Below are positions 16,714 through 45,846 of a DNA stretch of 64,000 nucleotides, piece after piece. Origin of the DNA: Microthyrium microscopicum (taxonomy: Eukaryota); NCBI GenBank assembly GCA_010405405.1, contig MU004232.1, positions 825,481 through 889,480 of the forward strand, written 5' to 3'. Positions within the stretch are counted from its first letter, which is position 1. Each line of letters begins with the position of its first letter. Below the pieces are notes generated by a model that did not search any database, was not told the DNA's origin, and was given only the letters and a program-made list of their open reading frames with translations. A program made the position numbers and the translations under genes.

Positions 16714-18908
16714 CTAATAGATGTAGACTTTTTGCTGAAGTTCTGCCTCCCTGAGTCCGTTTACTGCGCGAGAAAAGCAGTTCAGGTGGTCATTAGCGGG
16801 CAAGGTTGGGCGGACTCGCATAGTAAATATTCCGATTCTTGTCCACGATAAACGTATCCAGCGGGCTGGTGACCTTTGTGCTTCTTCGTCCGGTATCAAT
16901 ATCAACCCTTGAAAAGAATTGCCAATACTTCGAAGAAACAAACAATAAAATGCTGATCGCGGCCGAAGCAGGAGAGACTCATCGAAAAAGTAAGTTCCAG
17001 CAAGAGAAGAGAATTGCTTCCATCCCTTCTTGCCGTCACTTGAAGTGAAATGCAAATTCTCCAAGAAGATGGCGTTACTGGATGTCGAATCTGCCCTAGA
17101 ATATTGAAAAGACTCTTGATTGGCTGCGGATGTACGAAGCAATGGAGCGACCATAGTCATGTAGCCTTCTTTAATTTGACCGAATTTGTTGTTCTTGTCG
17201 GTGTAAATTATTTTGACGTCCAGCAGCGAAAGAAAATGCTCGTCTACCCGGTTAGGATATTCTTCGGAGTGATCTGAATGATCGATCTGACCTTCTCGTG
17301 AGGCCCAGCTCTAGTTTATACAGTCAGCCATCGCTTGACAACTAGGTTCTTCGAGTGGAAAACTGATACTTGCTTGAAGATTGGGAAGTGTTGACAAGGA
17401 ATTGGCTCACCCAAGATGGCGCTCGATACGGAGAGACGGTCCCACCCAACGGGCCACCAGTGAAGTGCCATAAGAGAGCGTCTATAGATCCTTTTTCCCC
17501 TTTCATGAACATTCCTGCTACATAAGGTATCTGAGTCTGATTGAACTGGCGTCTGGCGATGCCAGCTATCGCTGGTAATTTGTCTTCCCGATGTGTTATC
17601 GAAGATCTTGAGTAGGCTTTGACTATCTGCCACCATGCCTTCGCATCAGTGTGATGAATAGAAAATGGAGGCCGTTCGTCGAAATGCTTTGACTGAGATA
17701 CGAAACCGTTTGGAAAAGTCTCACAGGCTAGAACTTCGTCGCACTCCCAAATGAGTTGATTTCCACCGAAGTGAAGGGTTCTTGGCGAGAGTAAACGCTC
17801 TTGCTGAACCCATGCTCGATGGAGTAGTGGACAGGCCAATAGCTGCGTAAGATAATCTCGAGGGGTTATTGAGTAAAGTTCATTTTCTCGTGATCCCACC
17901 TTTTGAGATGGGTCAGTAGATTCGATGATGCAAGGTTTGACGGCATCAGGATCACGATAAACAAAGACTCCCGTCTCGGCATTATCGCCATGATCCGCGG
18001 ATATGTTAACTACGCCATTGGAGTAGATCACTGCCATTTCGCTTAGATGTCTTTGCCAATCTTCCATGGACCCTTGACCGGTTTGTAATATACACAAAGC
18101 ATCTACCCACAGAAGTTGAAACCCAAGATGTGTTGTAGTACGCATAGCTTCTCGGAAAGTTGGAGCAAGTGATGAGATTTTTATTCCAACCTTCAAAGCA
18201 TCGTAGTTCTGAGCTGTCAAGGTCAAATGTTTCGGATTTGATCCCCAACAGTAACTAAGCGTTGCGTAGCGGCCTTGATTGGCGGACACTGCTAGGTCAC
18301 TACTTTCGATTACACGAACCGAGTCGTTCTCTATTTGAAGAAGTCTAGGGGGATAGTAATCTGGTTGCTCATGGCTTGAGCATTTCGTATGATCAGACAA
18401 GCATTTTAACATCCAGAATCGGGCCCTGTCCAGTACTTTTGCTTCTCCAGTGTTGCTGCAGTTTAGGTTGTGTATGTTATTTTGATCTGTCATTCGGTTG
18501 CCAAATTTCGTTACTAGCCTTTCACCCGAAAAGATTTGTAGGAGACTACCTGTCCCATCTTCCAAACTCGGAGTAAGATAAAGATGTAGATGAGTACAGC
18601 ATAGCACTGGGGCAGCACACACCTATTGAAGCTCTGAATTCAAGCAGTGTAGAGTAGCCACGCCGCCTACCAAGGTATCGCAACCAGGAACCACTGCCCA
18701 GAGAATTGGTATAAACCTCGGGAAACTTCTTGCTTCTCATAGAATTCTGGAGCTGAGTACATATGCCACAACCTGCAGCAGCTGATACTAGAAGGCTCCT
18801 CGTCGTGCGGTGATGATCGCCTATTCTTTCGTACCATTGATGCTCAGCAAGATCTGCGAACATAGTCTTGCAGACTTGACATAAAGGTGCGATCGCATCA
18901 CCGTCCAT
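16714..18908 (-). CDS. HET (heterokaryon incompatibility) domain protein; 2 introns (first intron boundaries uncertain)
   Basis: N-terminal LCQVC...HH...GCGIC, YATLSYCWG, LWVDALCILQ, MAVIYSN, LHRAWVQQERLLSPRTLHF, DKLPAIAGIA, and RAPSW|SWAS across an intron. Confidence 0.88.
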
Positions 18909-20541: not shown

Positions 20542-22869
20542 ATGTTCGACAGCAAGGATCTCAAGGAGAGATTAGGCAAAATATCTGCAAAGACATTGTC
20601 CTCAGGGGGAAAGGAGTTATTTCGAACTCGCAATGAACGCAAGGTGAGCAAGTATGTTCTTTACTTCCCCTATAGTAGCTGATTATAAGTGCAGATAAAG
20701 TTCTCAGAAGAGTTTACCTACTCGCCACTGAGCGATTCACGATGCATACGACTTGTAAAGATCCACAAAGGAGCAGAGACAGATATTTTGTCGTGTGATC
20801 TCTGCGAAGCCAACCTTGAGAAAGAACCCATATTTCATGCTTTGTCATATTCATGGGATCTGGATCCTCATTTCAGTGCCTGGGACTTTGCCATGGTTCC
20901 TGACAAAAAGAAAGAGGAGAGGCCCATACTGTGCAACGGAAAGGTTTTACATATTACAATGAATCTTTACAACGCCATGTTAGAATTTCGCCGACAGGAA
21001 CGACTAGTACCTACCTGGGCTGATCAAATATCGATAAATCAACATGACGAAGAGGAGAAGATTGCGCAGTTGTCAATCATGGCGGACATATTTAGCTCAG
21101 CTAGCACGGTCATTGTTTGGCTTGGACTCTTGAATTCGGTGCGAAACAACGCTTTGGATTTCATGGAAGAGCTGCCAGAGACCAAATTGCCAGATACACT
21201 GGGAACCCTGGAGCAGAACCCGTTGAGTGGCCCGGAGAACATGGGGAAATTTGATCTCAAGAGTCTACGACGACCTTTACATCTCATAACAACAGCCTCC
21301 AGCTCGGTGGGAAATCATTATCATTGGTTTGGCGCAGTGTACGTCCTTGCGCGCCAATGGTTCTCAAGAGGCTGGACTCTGCAGGAATTTCTCCTGTCAA
21401 AAGAGGTTGTATTTCTCATGGGCAATCGAGAGATATCTTCAGCTGCCATCATCAAAACAGCAAGACAATTGTGCGGATTCTATTCCTCCGATCCCTTGTC
21501 AATACAGGTAGGCCTCAACGTTACGATGATAAGTTTGCGCAGGTTTATCGAAGGGAGAGCTAAGATGTTTGAAGAGCGCGAAAAGTTCCAGAACGGGAAG
21601 CGGTATACGGCCGAAGAATATCTAGGAGTCGTAAGAGCTAGGAAATGCAGCGTTAGGAAGGATAAAGTGTTTGCAGGCACCGCACTACTGGAACCTGGCA
21701 AGTCGCTCAAGGCAAATTACCATTCTACGACTCTCGAGGTTTATATTTCGTTTGCCCATGAACGACTTTGGCCTGAAACTGGTGTCTTTATGCTCTCTCT
21801 TGTCGGTGGTACTATGCCGGATACGGAAGGTTTACCATCCTGGATACCAGATCTGAACGGTTTTCTTCGTCCAGAACCACTGCGATATTGTAGTGCGACA
21901 AAGGTTGTACCATTGATATCTTCTCGGACCGATGACTGCTTGGTCGATGGCAGAACATTAAACCTTATGGTAGCGCAATGGGATGTTGTTGAAGAGGTTG
22001 GCGAATCAATTTGGAGCTGGACAAAATATGACGATGAGGCTTACAACGCCGACCCAATTGCCAAAATGCGCACATCAGGCTCCGTACAAAGAGAGCGATT
22101 CGGTCTGATGTTCAAGCTTCTCGAGCAGTTGGGTCCTATTTATAGTCACACAGGCGAGCGCATCACGGACGTATTCTGGCAAACTTTGATCGGCGGCATC
22201 GAAACTACGAACGAGGAAGACTTTGCACTCTGGCGAACACGATTCCAAAACTGGTTTGCTTTCACGCTTGGCCAAATGCGTGCCAACTTCTATCTGGAGA
22301 AAACGCATTCTGGGAATAAGCTGATGACCGCGTCGGCGCCCAAGAAATGGATGACACCCCTGATTGCTGAATGGACACAAATGGAAAACCGAGTGGCCGC
22401 TTTCTTGGATTTTCACGACCAAAACATCGGAAATGTTGCCGTTCCTGCTGAACAGCCACTTCGGAAGACTATTTCTGCTATCGCAAAGCGAGTCTGGGGA
22501 ACCGACAGCTTTGAGAAAACAGGCATTTTACAAGGCTCTCAAGGTTCTATGGCTGGAATGTACTCGACGGTAGCAGATCAGGAATTCTATGGACCTATCA
22601 GTCTCTTCGGCGACCGCTTCGTCAAATTCTACGATGGAAGGAGAATCTTCGTGACCAAGAACGGGTACCTTGGTGCTGGAATTGAGGATGTGAAAGCAGG
22701 CGATGTGATATGCCTCGTTCGTGGTTCAGACGTCCCATATATACTGAGACCAAGTGAAACGTCCGAGGATAGCTACACGTTGGTCGGCGAGGCATTTTTC
22801 CATGGTATCATGAGTGATGCAACTATAAAGGAGGATGTACTTGACTTCAAGAAGGTCAAAATAATTTAA
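20542..22869 (+). CDS. HET-6-like HET domain protein (intron 20644-20694)
   Basis: YSPL...IRLV, FHALSYSW, WADQISINQ, MADIFSSASTVIVWLG, WFSRGWTLQE, DKVFA, LPSWIPD, and C-terminal GRRIFVTKNGYLG...GDVICLVRG..VPYILR...LVGEAFFHGIM. Confidence 0.92.
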
Positions 22870-37032: not shown

Positions 37033-38435
37033 ATGCGGTTGCTCGGATATCCATAGTATGCATACGATATCATAGAATCCAAGCCTTGTCCACTCTTTTC
37101 AACATGTTTCCGGGCATTTAAAGACTATCTTTCCCTATTCACTCCAAACCAGTATATCGCAGGCTACCTACAACAGCCTATGCGCCACCCCCGAGCTTTG
37201 TGCGCCACAGTCAGGGCGGCCATCATCATTCGAATATTATACCAACATAAAGGGCACTCAGGACTGTAAAAGTAATATATTTGACAATTCTAGTCCACAG
37301 GCTTCGATTGAGATCAGCTTGCATTGAACATATCATTACCCTATGAAAGTGTGCCACTTTGCGATTCTGGCGTTCAGGCCACGTTCATCTTAAGGACACC
37401 AAACTTGCTCTTTGATATGACAGCATGTTTGACACGATTAAGATGCATCTAGCCTCACTTCGAAACTAATAGTGGGCAAAGTCTTTTCTCAAATCGCTGT
37501 GCTTCAAGCTCCAATTTTGGCTTGACACTGGGCAATGAACTGGCAAAATGACTGACCTGCCCTCATGAATTTACTAAGCTCCCATCCGCCACGCTATAGT
37601 ATCGAGCGATTTCTTTCTGAAAGAATGTGTTTGATTCTGGACAGTGTATCGAATGCGATCAGGACCATAGCGTCCTTTTCATAGAAGCATTGGTGGGAGC
37701 CGTGAAAGTTGAGAGGAGCAGCTCATTGATAGTCTTTTCAGCCTCATTCTTCGGACAATACCTGTTCGAATCAAAAGCGACACCTCTCCCATCGCACTCT
37801 ATGACTACCATAACGTGCGTTTTCAATCGAGTGCTATGGTAGCCATCGAATGCGAATAATTACCAGTCCCTTGGCGAGATAGGTTGAAGATAACAAAAGG
37901 TTGTGCAGGAAGAGTTTCTTGAACGTTCTCCAATGCCATGGTGCCGATGATTAGACTCGATTACACCAGGACTAAACAATCTTAAGTCACTGAAAGCAAT
38001 CATTCAATTGTCTTCTATCTACTCGAGGTTGCGGTTAGCTCGTCTGCTATGACATGCTCAGCATTCAACACCATTGGCAAAGCCTATCTTTCCCCTGAGA
38101 GTTAGGTGAGAAATAGGTCACTCGGCATCCGGCACCTCATTTACGCATAAAGTATCGCCTCCATCCTTCTGCCTGCACCTTCTTCTCCGTAGCCTTGAAG
38201 CAGAGTCAAGACTCTGATTGATTAGTTGCGGAGAAGCGTGACAATGTTATATTGCGAAGAGAAGATTTTGCTCATACTTAAACTTCAATTATGAGTGATT
38301 GACGAAAAACACATCCCTTTGGGCTAAAGAAGGACGTAAACCGCCGATTTTGAAAGGCAACCACAATTTGCTTCTCAAACCCTACGCCTCCCAGACACTC
38401 TTTACTTCTACTAATTGGATGCGGTCTCCGCTTAG

Positions 38436-38591
38436 TTAACACTGGGGACACTGGTACATGTCCCATCTCGTAAACACGCACTGTTCCTGTGGGCATATCA
38501 TGTTGTTCGCCTTTGCCCTGTCACATTTGGTTGTCTCTGTTTTCCTTCCGCCATGGACGCAATGGTAGGTTTTGACATCGATGTCACACAT
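38436..38591 (-). CDS. Small Cys/His-rich putative zinc-binding microprotein, array copy A (51 aa)
   Basis: MCDIDVKTYHCVHGG...C...C..QC...CPQC; paralogous to 40884-41069. 5'-UTR intron 38630-38763; TATA at 38915-38921. Confidence 0.8.
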   Translation of the reverse strand: MCDIDVKTYHCVHGGRKTETTKCDRAKANNMICPQEQCVFTRWDMYQCPQC

Positions 38592-39426
38592 TTCTTTGAG
38601 TGTATGAATAGGGTATGCTGTTCGTTGTCCTGAAGTCTTGTTTAGCGGTTCACGATCAAGAAGTCTCATTGCGTCTTGCCCTTCTGTAGCTTCAAAAAGA
38701 CTACAACAATTTATATTTGCAATGAAGGCAAGCTGTAGCTAAAAAGCATGCGAATTGTCTTACCCTTGGGTTGTTAGATCGTAAAGTTGAGTCTTATCAA
38801 CCGAACAAATAGCAGTATACTTATGGTTTGGTATGATTTTTTAACGGCACTTTGTTCGCTGGATGTCAGTCAGATTGTTTTTGCATTTCTTCTCATGTTC
38901 TACAAAGACCTGATATTTATACGAAAATGCACACTCATCAAGCGCTGCTCACTAACAGGTACCTAAATGACGTTAATAATGGCGGTAAAAGGTGAGTTTC
39001 TCCTTCATGGATGGCATTAACATCAATATGCGAACGGTTAGATACCCACAACAGCCTCCAGCTTGAGACTGGCCCACAACATAAGTACTTCGTAGCCAGT
39101 GCGGATGGAACAGAATGAGAATGGACCTCTTTAATTATGATACCCAGTGTTTCGGGCAATGCTATATGCACGTAATGACCAACCTGAAAACATTTGACCG
39201 TATAATCATCCTCCAAGCAACGGAACCTTCTCTCGCACAACCGTTCCCCTGTGTACATGATTGCCGACTGTTGTAAAATGACCGTATATGCACCCCCAAG
39301 CCATGAACAACTAGCAAATTGGGCCCCTAACACCCAAATAGATCATCAAATTCCATAATAATGATATGACTCGCAGCAAATTGATCTTGAAATGCAAAGG
39401 CCTGACAATCGTCTGATATGTTGTCC

Positions 39427-39648
39427 TCAATGGCCATTAACACCATTAGTCTTCTTCTCTCCATTTGATCCGTTCGTTGCCGGCTGGTATCTACGTTTGC
39501 AACGATCGCTGCAGTACTCGTCGGTTCGGTCGTAAGTAGGACCACGCACGTCGCTGCATGGCTCTTGCAAACTCATGTCGTGCAAGACGACGTGTACCTC
39601 CTCCCCTTCATGGCCACAGGCATACATAAACTTCCAAGACGTACACAT
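39427..39648 (-). CDS. Small Cys/His-rich putative zinc-binding microprotein, array copy B (73 aa)
   Basis: MCTSWKFMYACGH...H...C...CSDRC. 5'-UTR intron 39682-39804; shared leader box 39914-39935; TATA 39969-39975. Confidence 0.75.
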   Translation of the reverse strand: MCTSWKFMYACGHEGEEVHVVLHDMSLQEPCSDVRGPTYDRTDEYCSDRCKRRYQPATNGSNGEKKTNGVNGH

Positions 39649-40883
39649 CCCGAGAAATGCCGAAGACTGTTCTGGCTTGTCCTGAATACTGATCAGTCTC
39701 GATTCCACAAAAGGCAAGTGGAAACTTGGTCAGCAAGCAGAAGGCATGAAAGCATGCTGAAATGTTGCACTGCGAAAGAAGCTGTAAGGTTTAGAAAGAC
39801 ATACCGTGAGTTTTGTTTGAGGTTGGAGTAAATAGTTTTCGATTAAGTTGATAGGAAAGAAAATCTTTGAGTCTTGAATTGATGTTGTTTGTGCTTTGAT
39901 GGTATCTGTTCTTTGAGGCTCTGCCTTATTGTTCTGGTATTTCTTTTAGTATCGCAGATACGACTTTCATTTATACGAAAGACACCAAACCTACAAACGC
40001 TGCTGAATCTGTTTACCTATTGATGCTGGTAAAAGCTCAACCCATCTTTTGTTTACTTCATTCACATTGGCATCTCGCATTGACATGCATGCAAACAGCC
40101 TTGACAGCTAACGAGCTAAATGAACAACGAGCTTCCAAACACTGCGTTGGCTCTAGTCTAGTTCGTTCAGTCACCGTACGCTCTGTGACCTCCCCGATTA
40201 CTTAGATACCTAGCTAAATAACTATTATCTATAATGAGAAGTGAGGCTTATGCTTATCGATAGGACTGATGACACCATCATGAGTGCGTGTCATTAGCAA
40301 CGTCAGTTATCTCGTGAAGTGGTTGGAGAAAAAGGAGGTCTATATCGCTATAGATCGATAAACATGTAGAAATTGAAATAGACGAAGTAGCTTTGTAGAC
40401 CAATGGCAATATCATGTTTGTCTAGTTCCCAGTGTATTGGGCTATGTGTGTCTGACGTCAATCAAGGCGGCAGAAGGTAAGCTCACCTTGAAACGTTGGC
40501 ATTGATGTTAATATGCAAAAGGCGAACACGCATATATCAAGTTTTGACTTGGAAGTGTCATCAGGTCCAGTAGTTAGTAGGCTCATTCGATGGAAAAGAA
40601 TGAGAATGAACTTGCTCAATTTGGTGTGCAGTATATTGGGATATGTGTCCCTATATGCCAATGATACATGGATTGAGCTAAAATGATAGCATTGCCAAAG
40701 TCAAATTACCAACAGTTCCCAGGTGTGATCCCATTACCAACCAGAAGTATAATGACCGTAAAAACATCCTTCAAGCCAAAGTAGGACTTGGACCACCAGG
40801 GTCCATTTCAATCAAGCAGTACAAAATGATATACGGTGAAGCCTCCTTGCTGTCCGAACACAAACGGGTAAAACCTCTCTTCC

Positions 40884-41069
40884 CTACTCCTTTGATGCAT
40901 TCCCTTCCTTGTAACACTTGGGACACGATTTCATGTTGAATCTAGTAATGACACAGTGCTTTTGATCACACAGGATGCCGCCATTGTTCCATGCCTTCTC
41001 ACACTTCACGGTGTGACGGCCTACTCCGCCGTGCTTGCAGAGGTAGGTCCATACGTCGATGTCACACAT
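40884..41069 (-). CDS. Small Cys/His-rich putative zinc-binding microprotein, array copy C (61 aa)
   Basis: MCDIDVWTYLCKHGG...CEKA...C..HC...CPKC. 5'-UTR intron 41104-41237; leader box 41346-41368; TATA 41402-41408. Confidence 0.8.
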   Translation of the reverse strand: MCDIDVWTYLCKHGGVGRHTVKCEKAWNNGGILCDQKHCVITRFNMKSCPKCYKEGNASKE

Positions 41070-42099
41070 TGTGTAGTTTGTGAGGATGGACGTTTTTCTT
41101 GTCCTGCAAAATTGATTAGCTATTGATAGTCGAGGTTATCGCACAACATCCTCTCCTGAACCGTAAAAGCATCTCCATATCTGAAAAATAGGAAAGGGAC
41201 GTAATGAAATGGGTCTGCAAGATTTCAAGAGCCTTACGTTGAGGTTTGATCGAAGTGAAAGCAGGGTCTTTTGTAAGGATTAATGAGAGGCGATGTTTGA
41301 GCTTGATAGTGGCCGGTGATTGTGTTTTGATAGAAGTTTTTTCTCTGAGGCTCTGCCTTGGTTGTTCTGATGTCTCTTCCAATGTCGCAGATAAGCCATT
41401 TATTTATACGAAAGATATCAGATCCACAAACGCTGTTAGATCTGTTTGGCTGTGAGTGAAAGTGGAATGTCAAACCATCTTGCGTTTAATATATTCACAT
41501 GGACATGGAAGCGAACCGCGGATGGGACAAGTAATTCGGCGTGCTTCCAAACACCGCGTTGGCTCTAAACCAGATCACTCATTGAGTGGTCACTTGTTTA
41601 CTCTCCAACTAAGTAAATGACTACATACTTTACGTAGGTAGGTAAAATATTACATGCAATATGCAGTAGATCACTGTTACCAGAAGGATAGAAACAGTCA
41701 TTGTGGGCCATAGGGAGCTTTATTTATCATGTTAATCGGTAGGCAAAAGGGCCTTTGCTCACAGTAAGACTTCAAATAACTCAAAGAGAAGGTATTTGTA
41801 TCAAATAAAGATAATATCATGCTATTTTACTTCCCAGTGTATCGGGATATGTGTTTTCGCTTCCAGTCATGTATAATATGACCAGATGACCATCCTCCCT
41901 ACCTAAGCAACAGTACAATTGAATTCACTACAGCTCGCACGAGTACATGAATCCCGATCATAATATAAAGACCACAAAAGATTTCATCAAGCCACAAGCA
42001 ATTGGACCACCAGGGTCTAAAATAATCAGAAGCCAAGCATCATTGATCGCGAACCCACACCTGTTGTCGAGTGATTCTCCATGCCCTTCTTCACTAAGT

Positions 42100-42294
42100 T
42101 CACTTTTTGGCGAAACGCTCTCGTGTCTTGCCTCTTTTGTTGACGCATTCCCAGCAGTTGAAGCCATCTACATAGATCGGTCTATGTTTAGTTCGATGAT
42201 CGCACAGTTTTCGCACCCTCTCCGCCTTCTCGCATGCTTTCGGAGCCTTTTCTCGGCACCCGCATTCGTAATCGCAATAGTACATGTCGCACAT
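42100..42294 (-). CDS. Small Cys-rich putative zinc-binding microprotein, array copy D (64 aa)
   Basis: MCDMYYCDYECGC...CEKA...C...CWEC. 5'-UTR intron 42323-42462; leader box 42579-42601; TATA 42635-42641. Confidence 0.78.
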   Translation of the reverse strand: MCDMYYCDYECGCREKAPKACEKAERVRKLCDHRTKHRPIYVDGFNCWECVNKRGKTRERFAKK

Positions 42295-43474
42295 CTTGAA
42301 GGCTCGTGGAGAGTAAGATTTTCTGTTTTGTATTGTGACTTGATCAGAAATTGCCAGATATGAAATAGCAATCGCGTTGTTTGTTCTGCTGATCAGAGAT
42401 ATAAAATCAAAGGCATTGTAGTGAAGGCTCGCAAAGATTTGGCAACAGGTTTAGGGACTTACCAGGGGATGTGTGAAGCCTAAATTAGCCTGACTGATTT
42501 GATCGAGTTCAAAGGGTGGGGATTTTGAAGAGTTGAAGTTTTGTATCGTCTTGTGGGGATTGAAAGCAATGTGTTCTGTGAGGCTCTGCCTTGGTTGTTC
42601 TAAAAACATCTACCAAATGAAAGATTAACCATTGATTTATATATGTTGCCAGCAAACGCTGGCTTGACATGTTGCATCATGGTGTTGGAGATGTTTTCGT
42701 TTGATGTTAAGTTTGTTACTGTCGATATTCAAGCGTAAGAAAAAATCAAACCGCTCCATAGCCTCAAGGTGACCCTATCTCACCAGCAGTGAAGCACTAA
42801 AAACCATTAACAAACTGCTTCAAGAACAAATTGATAGTCTTACTAGCTCATGGGCATCTCCAGGCACTTACGGCTCCATGTCCACTAGCAAGCACAAGCC
42901 AAAGTGAAGTTAAATGAGCGGTAGGATATGAAGAAGAAGTCCAATAGCGAGAGCTTTTCCTGCAATTCCATGGCTCAATACCTCCAAACAATACAAAGCG
43001 GCTGACTGAAGCCAACGCGAAATATCAATTGCCAATCAAGCGTTGTGGAGGAGTAACCTTTCTACACTGTGGTATTGACTACAGATCACAGACCATACTG
43101 AAGCTTCGCCAACGAAATATTTGACTATAACCTGAACTTTGCTACCCGTTGCATATTCCAGTGCCCGGTCTAAATCAAACAAAACCAGAATGAGCTCCCA
43201 GGTGTCAGATTAGGATTGAAGTTACACAGCGCACTATTGATCACCGCAACAGCTATCGCCGCAATCAATCAATCGCATCGGTTTACAACATTGCTGAACA
43301 AAGCTGCCCAAGTTGCAGCCAAGTGAATGGCCAGAGACATGCATGCACGAGCTGTCACAATGTGTGGCCACTTTACAGATCCTGCTGCGTGCATTCTCAA
43401 AAATGATATAGCTGACGAAGCTTTAAACCTTCTAAAAATGGATCATTGAGAATTAGCATTACTATTGACAAAGC

Positions 43475-43927
43475 TTAAGCAGGCGTGATAGCCGCAGCAA
43501 CCAAATACATCGTCGATCCTGCAAGACCGCCGGTTCCCCGGTAGAATCGTACGTTCGATACGGCTGTAAACGTGCCAGTTCTGAGCCAGTCTGCACTATT
43601 CTGAGCAACCACCAACTTCTGGACGTCATAGACAAAATAGACAAGGTTTAGACCTCTGGCATAGGCGGTAAATTGATACTGCTGTCCAGGTACCAGACTG
43701 GTAAATGTCTGCGATACGAGAGCGCTATAGCCAGCATCATCAATCCCGTTATCCGCGGTTAATTGGAAATAGTAGTTGCCGGAAATACGATCGCTAATGC
43801 AAACAACAACGTTGGCAGTGACGACACCAGATGGGTTCTTGTCAATATCAACGTTCCATGGGTCTAAAGAGCCAATTTCAAAGTCACCGTTGGCGATTAA
43901 AGGGACTGCCGACGATGATGCAGCAGC
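43475..43927 (-). pseudogene. CBM4/9-like (galactose-binding-like) carbohydrate-binding module remnant, cut off from the upstream gene by stop codons
   Basis: Minus-strand frame reads AAASSSAVPLIANGDFEIGSLDPWNV...SGNYYFQL...VSQTFTSLVPGQQYQFTAYARG, immediately preceded by in-frame TGA at 43928-43930; no own start codon upstream of the domain. Confidence 0.55.
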
Positions 43928-44127: not shown

Positions 44128-45846
44128 TCAGACAGTAGCACTACTGCTGGGCGCTGAAGTTGTTGAGCTTGAAAGACCTGACGACATTGTGGAAGGACTG
44201 GACGATGTAGCCGAGCTTGATGAATCTGAAACAGTAGAACTGCTGCTCAGAGCCACACTTGTGGAACTCGAAGTAGCTGAAGAAGTGATTGTGCTCGAAA
44301 CCGAACTGGACTCGCCGCCTGAGCATGTAAGATTATAGACCTGCAGATCGGAGACAGTATCAGTGCAAAAAATATCACCAGTCTCAAATGCTTTTGCAGC
44401 TGCCTCACATAATGCGCTTTCGCTGATCCAGTATACAAAACATGGAGCAGTCGTGCAATAAGCTTGACAAGCAGATAATGAGGGCGCTGGGCCAGCAAAA
44501 AACACCACGTCAGCAGCAGCATATGATATCGTACATTCACCTGCTCCGTGATAGACATCGATAAAAGAGCAGGTTGGAGATGTGGAGATCGACGATGTTG
44601 TTGAACTGGTCGTCGAAGGCGATAAGCTGCTTGGGTCCGTTGAGGAGCTCGTGGATGAAGAGACATATGAAGGTGATGAGCTGCTAGGTATTGTAGATGA
44701 GCTTGTGGATGTAGAAACAAACGAAGATGATGAGCTGCTAGGCATCGTAGAGGAGCTTGTAGACGAAAAAACAATTGAAGATGATGTAGCTCCAGAGCAG
44801 GCCAGATCGTAGAATTTGTATGGAGAGCTCGCGTCCTCCTTAAAATTGCCTGCCACCGGCGTCTTGTATAGGTAGCAGATTGAGCTTGACAGTGCAATAG
44901 ATTGGCATCCAGAAGTCGCTTTGCACAATCCCACACACCCCGAAAGTGTATGATAGGCAGCAGAGGTGGAATCCGTGAAAGATTCAGGTGAGTTCTTGTC
45001 GTACCCTGATATTTGTTAATATATCGCCATGTCCAGAGCTAACAGATTTTGAAGTGACCATTTGATCTGTTACAGGAACCATAACAATCGATTGTATTAG
45101 GGAGGCAAATCATGGGAGCAGCCAAATATAATGGCAGCTACCACGATTTTACTAAGCTTTGACTGCAAATGCTGCCTTTTGGAACATTGTATTCTTACCT
45201 ACGAGACCGCAACTCAAGGCGGATGGAACGGAACTGGAAGCTGTCGATGAGCGAGAAAGGCTGCTGGATGCCGACGTGATTGTTGATAGAGTCGAAGAGA
45301 GAACAAGGCTGCTGGATGATGTGACGTGTGCTGAAGATGTCGATGATTGCACAAGACTACTACTAGATAGCAGAGCGTGCGTTGATACTGTGGAAGATCG
45401 AAGGCTCGAAGAGGCAGAGCGAGACGGGCTTGCTGAGACGGAACGAGTAGAGACGCTTGAGTGGGCTAAGCTAGACGAGGATGCTGAAGACGTAGCACAG
45501 CTTCTATCATAGAAAGCGTAAGGACTTTCAGAGTTTGGATTGAAATTACCAGTTCTGGAAACGCGGTGAGATTGAGTCAACCAAAAGAACACGTAAAAGC
45601 TTACACTGGTACAGTATAATGTAGGCATGTGTTGTCCCCAACAGCAAAGCTGGCGCAAGAACTGTCTGCCAAACAATGCGCTCCACATGCTTTAATGGTC
45701 GCGAGAGATCCTGTTTGACCGAAATATGCGTTTGTTGAGAGGTCATATCCGTAGCCCCCGCAGATAGGTTGGGCGCGTTTGAGAAGAAAGTCAGTCGAAA
45801 GGGCAGAACAGACCGGCAAGGCTACTAAAAGCCCGAATGAATACAT
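44128..45846 (-). CDS. Secreted Ser/Thr-rich protein with PAN/Apple-like Cys domains (introns 45555-45604, 45006-45198)
   Basis: Signal peptide MYSFGLLVALPVCSA plus KR; repeated CG..GYD...C...C....C.S.A.....C..Y...V.GNF....SPY.FYD..C modules separated by Ser-rich linkers. Confidence 0.75.

Follow-up and report, generated by a model that had tools for sequence, protein, structure and literature searches.

Described tandem families of small-protein genes in which the coding parts change fast and the flanks are conserved include the Amanita MSDIN toxin precursors, the cone-snail toxin genes and fungal effector clusters. The array considered here, which lies in a 64,000-nucleotide (64-kb) stretch of contig MU004232.1 of Microthyrium microscopicum (the window, always taken at its full length), resembles these families inasmuch as coding similarity is gone between most of its copies, with non-coding and N-terminal landmarks remaining, but differs from them in that its units possess neither a signal peptide nor a processed core. 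The array occupies positions 38436-42661 of the minus strand and consists of four units, in the order D, C, B, A, each of which closes with a short frame opening with ATG-TGY (Met-Cys). The same elements follow one another in the same order in all four units, namely CAGCGYTTG, TATAAAT, a spacer of 33 nucleotides (nt), a conserved leader block, a GT-AG interval, a further 28-38 nt, and the ATG. It appears likely that these are four old paralogous RNA polymerase II (Pol II) genes that inherited a common architecture, the functional points of which have been held by selection.

The elements were read directly in the sequence and located by motif scans of both strands of the window, with shuffled sequence as the control. 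According to the gene model that can be drawn from them, a CAGCGYTTG element, followed by a TATA box, would direct transcription from a region that begins, after the 33-nt spacer, with the pyrimidine-A step opening the conserved leader block; a first exon of 118-139 nt, non-coding, rich in A and C and devoid of ATGs, would then be followed by an intron of the canonical spliceosomal type, 123-140 nt long, within the 5' untranslated region (5'UTR), by a second leader segment of 28-38 nt and by the ATG-TGY start. The features of the array, with the lengths of the proteins in amino acids (aa), are as follows.

38915..38947, minus strand: proximal promoter of unit A, with CAGCGCTTG at 38939-38947, a 17-nt gap, and TTTCGTATAAAT at 38915-38926
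38764..38881, minus strand: predicted non-coding exon 1 of unit A, 118 nt, opening with the degenerate leader block (38859-38881), A/C-rich, no ATG
38630..38763, minus strand: predicted 5'UTR intron of unit A, 134 nt, with GTAAGA, a branch-like CTAAA 12 nt before the end, terminal CAG and two ATGs
38436..38629, minus strand: predicted exon 2 of unit A, with a 38-nt leader opening with GACAA and the coding sequence (CDS) at 38436-38591, 51 aa, MCDIDV...CPQC, stop TAA
39969..40002, minus strand: proximal promoter of unit B, with CAGCGTTTG at 39994-40002, an 18-nt gap, and TTTCGTATAAAT at 39969-39980
39805..39935, minus strand: predicted exon 1 of unit B, 131 nt, opening with the 22-nt leader box (39914-39935), no ATG
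39682..39804, minus strand: predicted 5'UTR intron of unit B, 123 nt, with GTATGT, CTGAT 11 nt before the end, terminal CAG and three ATGs, one of them within the 5' splice site
39427..39681, minus strand: predicted exon 2 of unit B, with a 33-nt leader and the CDS at 39427-39648, 73 aa, stop TGA
41402..41435, minus strand: proximal promoter of unit C, with CAGCGTTTG at 41427-41435, an 18-nt gap, and TTTCGTATAAAT at 41402-41413
41238..41368, minus strand: predicted exon 1 of unit C, 131 nt, opening with the 23-nt leader box (41346-41368), no ATG
41104..41237, minus strand: predicted 5'UTR intron of unit C, 134 nt, with GTAAGG, CTAAT 12 nt before the end, terminal CAG and three ATGs
40884..41103, minus strand: predicted exon 2 of unit C, with a 34-nt leader and the CDS at 40884-41069, 61 aa, stop TAG
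42635..42661, minus strand: proximal promoter of unit D, with CAGCGTTTG at 42653-42661, an 11-nt gap, and TATAAAT at 42635-42641, the TTTCG part being absent
42463..42601, minus strand: predicted exon 1 of unit D, 139 nt, opening with a 23-nt leader box (42579-42601) equal to that of C, no ATG
42323..42462, minus strand: predicted 5'UTR intron of unit D, 140 nt, with GTAAGT, CTGAT 21 nt before the end, terminal CAG and one ATG
42100..42322, minus strand: predicted exon 2 of unit D, with a 28-nt leader and the CDS at 42100-42294, 64 aa, stop TGA
40131..40155, minus strand: distal upstream element of unit B, a 24/25 match to the element of C
41543..41567, minus strand: distal upstream element of unit C, the partner of 40131-40155

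Within the window, CAGCGYTTG has four matches, every one in a unit of the array (0.93 expected from shuffles; four were reached in 0 of 100 shuffles). An earlier, sequence-only reading of the stretch had placed CAGCG[T/C]TTG in front of each unit; all four sites are indeed present, with the coordinates right for B, C and D and off by one for A (38939-38947, not 38938-38946). TATAAAT occurs 11 times, and the four copies that come after a CAGCG box, at gaps of 17, 18, 18 and 11 nt in A, B, C and D, satisfy the TATAWAW core-promoter consensus upstream of all four units; the extended form claimed for A, B and C is TTTCGTATAAAT, all three window matches of which lie in these three promoters. Similarly, direct reading bears out the 24/25 match that had been noticed further upstream of B and C (40131-40155 vs 41543-41567), which falls within a 42-nt stretch of 81% identity. 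The leader box, said to lie about 35 nt past TATA, starts exactly 33 nt after the last T of TATAAAT in all four units, degenerate A included, and its described states are confirmed: identical at 23/23 positions in C and D, near-identical and 22 nt long in B, and degenerate in A, where AAAACAA alone is retained and the core is gone. The core of the box, AAGGCAGAGCCTCA, has three matches in the window at up to two mismatches (0.59 expected), located in B, C and D. The GT-AG intervals, too, have the lengths given previously (134, 123, 134 and 140 nt) and end 38, 33, 34 and 28 nt ahead of the ATG in A, B, C and D, respectively, in agreement with the 28-38 nt then stated; CAGGACAA, the junction motif, has four window matches, three of which are at the junctions of A, B and C. 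CAGCGYTTG is not known to match the site of any named factor.

The similarity between the units is concentrated in short islands. An unbiased scan of the four-way alignment (12-column windows, mean pairwise identity of at least 0.6) detected ten overlapping islands that span 190 columns, as compared to a mean of 0.17 and a maximum of one for 30 shuffled sets passed through the same pipeline. They correspond to an upstream CATGT block, the CAGCG and TATA boxes, a leader block of 45 columns, the 5' splice site, CTRAWCA as the branch site, the region around the ATG, and a single coding block. In every pair of units, synonymous substitution has come close to saturation or reached it, the proportion of synonymous differences (pS) being 0.68 for A/C and 0.81-1.03 for the other five pairs. 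When segment-wise global alignments were scored against shuffles (z), the leader box reached 7.7-8.6 among B, C and D, and the core promoter 9.4 (BC), 5.7 (CD) and 5.5 (AC); the introns yielded 2.3-3.1, their interiors aligning about as shuffled sequence does, and coding DNA 0.3-3.3, with the exception of AC (7.3). The sequence-only reading had named beforehand, as an outcome that would speak against it, a motif identity no higher than the background of the duplicated units; the motifs are found far above that background, the box and core promoter with z up to 8.6-9.4 and the introns with 2.3-3.1.

The segment around the TATA box is best compared with Pol II core promoters that combine a TATA box and an initiator, with which it shares TATAAAT, the constant 33 nt to a pyrimidine-A step, and the ATG-free zone that extends from there. 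The difference is that most fungal promoters are reportedly TATA-less: the sections of PMC9801653 dealing with Podospora anserina describe no clear TATA-box signature near mapped transcription starts and cite earlier work in which the canonical TATA box was missing from most fungal promoters (PMC9801653), and in the array the start itself is placed from the sequence alone. Since the canonical TATA box is reported to be missing from most fungal promoters in these sections, four perfect TATA boxes in a row would be a family trait.

Transcription probably starts at or near the box, at the pyrimidine-A step 33 nt past TATA. The start is placed at or just before the box because the last upstream ATGs end 1-5 nt ahead of it in A and D, as a scanning model would have it. 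The predicted mature leader, that is, exon 1 from the box onward together with the leader part of exon 2, contains no ATG in the 654 nt contributed by the four units, with approximately 13 expected at the window density of 0.0197 per nt; there are nine ATGs in the 531 nt of predicted intron and five in the 130 nt that separate TATA from the box. With the predicted intron removed, the first ATG encountered in each of the four units is that of the Met-Cys start, and position -3 is a purine. The composition shifts at the predicted boundaries, from A 0.39, C 0.29, G 0.12 and T 0.20 in the leader to T 0.33 and A 0.27 in the intron. The absence of an ATG from exon 1 excludes both an upstream coding exon and a signal peptide. 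A conserved upstream peptide encoded in the box was considered as well and ruled out, the reading frames being different in C and D.

The GT-AG interval finds its closest counterpart in the leader introns implicated in intron-mediated enhancement: it would be a single promoter-proximal GT-AG intron within the 5'UTR, with the splice signals kept and the interior variable. UTR introns are reported in the sections of PMC9801653 on Podospora, a member of the same fungal group, Pezizomycotina, and promoter-proximal introns are said to boost expression in fungi, plants and animals alike (PMC3141229). Unlike the two introns of about 55 nt that can be placed, from the sequence, where conserved genes of the window show frame breaks and that use GTAAGT, CTAAC and YAG, the array introns are more than twice as long (123-140 nt). 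Each unit has a single GTANGN between TATA and ATG; the four 5' splice sites, GTAAGA, GTATGT, GTAAGG and GTAAGT, are aligned with one another and fit the fungal U2-type GTRNGY consensus, with the terminal pyrimidine in two of the four. A branch site CTRAY situated 10-40 nt before YAG is found in strict form in three units (B, C, D), and forms a conserved island in the four-way alignment. It seems, then, that the intron is spliced from the transcript, and it is probably kept as an expression aid for a very short open reading frame and as a remover of one to three upstream ATGs per gene.

The interval could also be retained, either because transcription starts inside or after it, the upstream islands being distal promoter elements, or because splicing is regulated, retention blocking translation via the intronic ATGs. 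Given the Podospora anserina data in the sections of PMC9801653 cited above, TATA need not mark the start, and the one to three ATGs per intron include one in unit A, at 38669, that is in frame, so that a retained form would yield another product. Against this, the islands common to all four units inside the interval are confined to the branch site and the 5' splice site; ATGs are absent from the flanking leader and occur inside at the background rate; the composition shifts at both borders; and the TATA-to-box spacing is invariant. We therefore rate retention as very unlikely. The ATG at 38669 of unit A, with no stop between it and the microprotein, opens a frame of 77 aa (38436-38669, minus strand); intron retention would there give an N-terminally extended product, a property not conserved in B, C and D.

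Two halves can be distinguished in the leader box. The 5' half, ARAACAA, is kept in all four units and, judging from the constant 33-nt spacing to TATA and the pyrimidine-A step, would mark and serve initiation. The 3' half, AAGGCAGAGCCTCA, is present in B, C and D and lost in A, which suggests a regulatory rather than a basal role, because unit A has lost this core and yet keeps a constrained coding sequence; AAGGCAGAGCCTCA would be bound by a sequence-specific factor through which three of the four genes (B, C, D) are regulated together. It is also conceivable, if unlikely, that the box acts in RNA, as a family-specific 5'-terminal element of the mRNA that is read by an RNA-binding protein and governs how the mRNA is translated, how stable it is or where it is localised, much as 5'-terminal oligopyrimidine leaders do. 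The position of the box just past the expected start, 33 nt after TATA and 1-5 nt after the end of upstream ATGs, would make it the first ~23 nt of the transcript, and the conservation runs for approximately 45 columns of the four-way alignment into the leader. However, RNAalifold returned no consensus pairs over the four leaders, the one hairpin of the leader fold, of 4 bp, was no better than shuffles (z -1.67 to 0.93), and unit A does without the box core. A search of Rfam over 37500-43500 gave no match at E <= 1, leaving an intron-hosted small nucleolar RNA or another known RNA unsupported. Because there is neither a conserved RNA structure nor an Rfam match, the box would act as primary sequence, be it in DNA or in RNA.

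As a DNA site, the box may be compared with the calcineurin-dependent response element (CDRE) bound by Crz1/CrzA. Its opposite strand reads GAGGCTC, exactly so in three of the four units (B, C, D), and TTGGTTG, which fits TTGNTTG, follows 4 nt after GAGGCTC in C and D. In the passages of PMC2873923 on such elements, GAGGCTC is quoted as a CDRE of the Aspergillus giganteus afp promoter, and TTGNTTG is enriched in MoCRZ1-bound DNA. Published CDRE consensus sequences vary widely among fungi. The window contains seven copies of GAGGCTC, roughly as many as chance would give, and 76 of TTGNTTG; the Saccharomyces cerevisiae form, GNGGC(G/T)CA as quoted in those passages of PMC2873923, has no match in the array. 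The array site differs from described CDREs also in its unusual position, at or after the presumed start rather than upstream of it. A Crz1/CrzA-type CDRE is accordingly put forward as a weak lead and not as a match, as it was reached after some ten other factors had been considered; the motifs of PacC, Ace1/Mac1, Zap1, StuA and AP-1-like factors, compared by eye, did not fit.

The four frames encode cysteine-rich proteins of 51-73 aa, the N-terminus of which, read by eye, does not resemble a signal peptide. M1, C2, Y9, C11 and two later cysteine columns are invariant in the four-way protein alignment. The proteins of A and C are alike (tblastn E = 4e-16; 27 of 51 residues identical), and the ratio of nonsynonymous to synonymous rates (dN/dS) for this pair, 0.24, indicates purifying selection on the frame and supports a real protein. 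In B and D, synonymous sites are saturated and there is no significant protein similarity from which selection could be read. Frame length was rejected as proof that B and D code, such frames following 13-15% of the ATGs in the window; the coding status of these two units is assigned because of positional homology and the shared Met-Cys...Tyr..Cys start.

Searches outside the window turned up no family to which these proteins could be assigned. Pfam gave sub-threshold matches only (E >= 0.13); a word-based protein search with C (lengths 33-107 aa) returned no candidate, not even C itself; a HMMER profile of all four proteins had no hit at E <= 0.001 among 1.84 billion representatives, the sensitivity being low given short proteins and a poor alignment; and in the ESM Atlas the best score was 0.88, for unnamed ascomycete clusters, which is below the counting level. 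Open frames this small often go uncalled as genes. The microprotein genes are probably unannotated, because in the protein collections searched they matched nothing, their own sequences included. An AlphaFold2 model of C, built on a two-row alignment, had a mean predicted local distance difference test score (pLDDT) of 43 and was unusable.

The one described structure that the proteins recall is the zinc ribbon of ribosomal protein eS29/uS14. Profile positions 31-58, in the C-terminal half of A and C, align with its second zinc-knuckle region in PDB chains (E = 0.0055-0.037); however, the borderline score is carried by the cysteine pattern, the first CxxC pair is unmatched, and the S14 family is absent from the weak Pfam matches. 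Membership in eS29/uS14 was rejected, as the best alignment (E = 0.0055) covers 28 residues and not the whole ribbon. The alignment may hint at a zinc-ribbon-like fold, or possibly at mere shared cysteine spacing.

Several observations weigh against the account of four selected, co-regulated genes given so far. The branch site of unit A is CTAAA, not CTRAY. The depletion of ATGs from the predicted leader, with P = 0.0006 against mono-nucleotide shuffles, has P = 0.04 under a first-order Markov control, because the leader is poor in G. In one presumed RNA run under the same species label, no contig fell on 38300-42800. Metagenome scans with the TATAAAT-gap-box pattern found no locus, and those with the A+C protein alignment 230 pattern matches, none of which was confirmed by tblastn. 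For the proteins of B and D, nothing significantly similar was found among the other copies or elsewhere in the window, in which frames as long as theirs are opened by 13-15% of ATGs. Finally, the similarity between the units is a mosaic, with B and C nearest in the promoter, A and C in the coding part, and C and D in the 3' flank, so that recombination between units, rather than selection, may account for some of the conservation.

The points concerning the proteins bear on the notion that the units are non-coding, an array of non-coding RNA genes or of decaying pseudogenes with accidental frames. The lack of a homologue or Pfam family in the searches made, the dissimilarity of B and D to the other copies, and the fact that frames of such length follow 13-19% of window ATGs are in its favor. 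It is, nevertheless, extremely improbable given the A/C dN/dS of 0.24 with synonymous sites saturated, the ATG-TGY at the same place in all four units, where it is the first ATG of the predicted leader and has a purine at -3, and the invariant M1, C2, Y9, C11 and two later cysteine columns.

The mosaic, in turn, bears on how much of the conservation is due to selection. The z scores are 7.9-9.4 for the promoter and upstream region of B and C, with 145 nt at 72% identity, and 7.8 for the 3' flanks of C and D. Because the closest pair differs from segment to segment (BC, AC, CD), the data point to an array that evolved with recombination between units, by unequal crossing-over or conversion, besides selection. 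In its extreme form, this explanation would make the shared motifs leftovers of duplication or of short gene conversion rather than selected regulatory sites, and the mosaic, the B/C promoter stretch and the islands in the 3' flanks all agree with it. Yet the islands, which are short and have sharp borders, coincide exactly with the TATA box, the 5' splice site, the branch site and the ATG; the box shared by C and D (23/23) adjoins sequence at the level of shuffles while synonymous sites are saturated; and conservation between three or four units would require repeated conversion of the same few bases. Neither is there a signature of repeat-induced point mutation, which was rejected as the cause of divergence, the TpA/ApT index (0.74) and the second index (1.28) in the array being like those in the rest of the window. 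Leftovers of this kind are, in our judgement, a very unlikely source of the shared motifs. The sequence-only reading had argued from the persistence of non-coding motifs beyond coding similarity to a selected common regulatory program; of this argument, the conservation far above background stands, and part of the pattern probably reflects mosaic ancestry. The mosaic history tempers the argument and fails to explain the short, sharply bounded four-way islands, for which selection at functional points of old paralogous genes is the preferred reading.

The 3' flanks contain islands of their own. GACCCTGGTGGTCCAA, at 40788-40803 and 42002-42017 of the minus strand, some 80-100 nt past the stops of C and D, is identical at 16/16 positions and belongs to an inverted repeat, GGACC...GGTCC, that might fold into a 3'UTR hairpin or, as a palindrome, serve as a binding site; its counterpart in B, GGGGCCCAA, is loose only. 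A second island, ACACATATCCCRATACACTGGGAA, is found on the minus strand at 41831-41848, 40625-40642 and 40426-40443, 232-264 nt after the stops of D, C and B, and in degenerate form near 39140-39163; its pattern has four matches, as against 0.10 expected, three of them within the array. The two copies of ACACATATCCCRATACACTGGGAA in the C-B spacer show an internal partial duplication of approximately 200 nt there. The same spacer holds, at ~40455-40470 of the minus strand, a perfect palindrome of the CRE/ATF type, TGACGTCA; the block around it is homologous to a stretch just upstream of the promoter of unit A (~38965-38975, minus strand), where it reads TAACGTCA.

The gene content of the window is that of a filamentous ascomycete, comprising two HET-domain genes and genes for a Suv3 helicase and a gamma-tubulin complex protein, besides others typical of fungi, at a G+C content of 42-52%. 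The HET-domain (heterokaryon incompatibility) frames, at 17342-18622 of the minus strand (E = 5e-27) and 20689-22869 of the plus strand (E = 2.5e-23), lie about 2 kb apart, and it is because of this pair that the window is assigned to the filamentous ascomycetes. Beyond unit D, the minus strand carries a stop-free frame of 295 aa (44128-45015) without a Pfam match; in or next to it are three tandem 54-nt repeats with 72-74% identity and a second set with 48-nt spacing (repeats 44615-44776 and 45237-45361).

A more far-reaching possibility is that the 23-nt block at the transcript start is a dedicated control element, either a Crz1-type site or a 5'-terminal RNA tag, of an orphan family of zinc-binding-like microproteins, which would switch B, C, D and any other members as one, A having escaped; we regard this as speculative and quite unlikely. 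Taken together, the data describe an orphan tandem family from a filamentous ascomycete. Its gene architecture is real but ordinary, all components being of known kinds; it is what one would expect from old tandem duplication under common control, and no new mechanism is involved. Two motifs and the protein family are without a match in the Pfam, protein, metagenome, Rfam and ESM Atlas searches that were made. The array is of interest inasmuch as paralogous footprinting alone yields a full gene model, from the promoter through the start region and the leader intron to the start codon, and inasmuch as CAGCGYTTG and the leader box, short and specific as they are, could serve as probes for the rest of the family, or of the regulon, in the genome.

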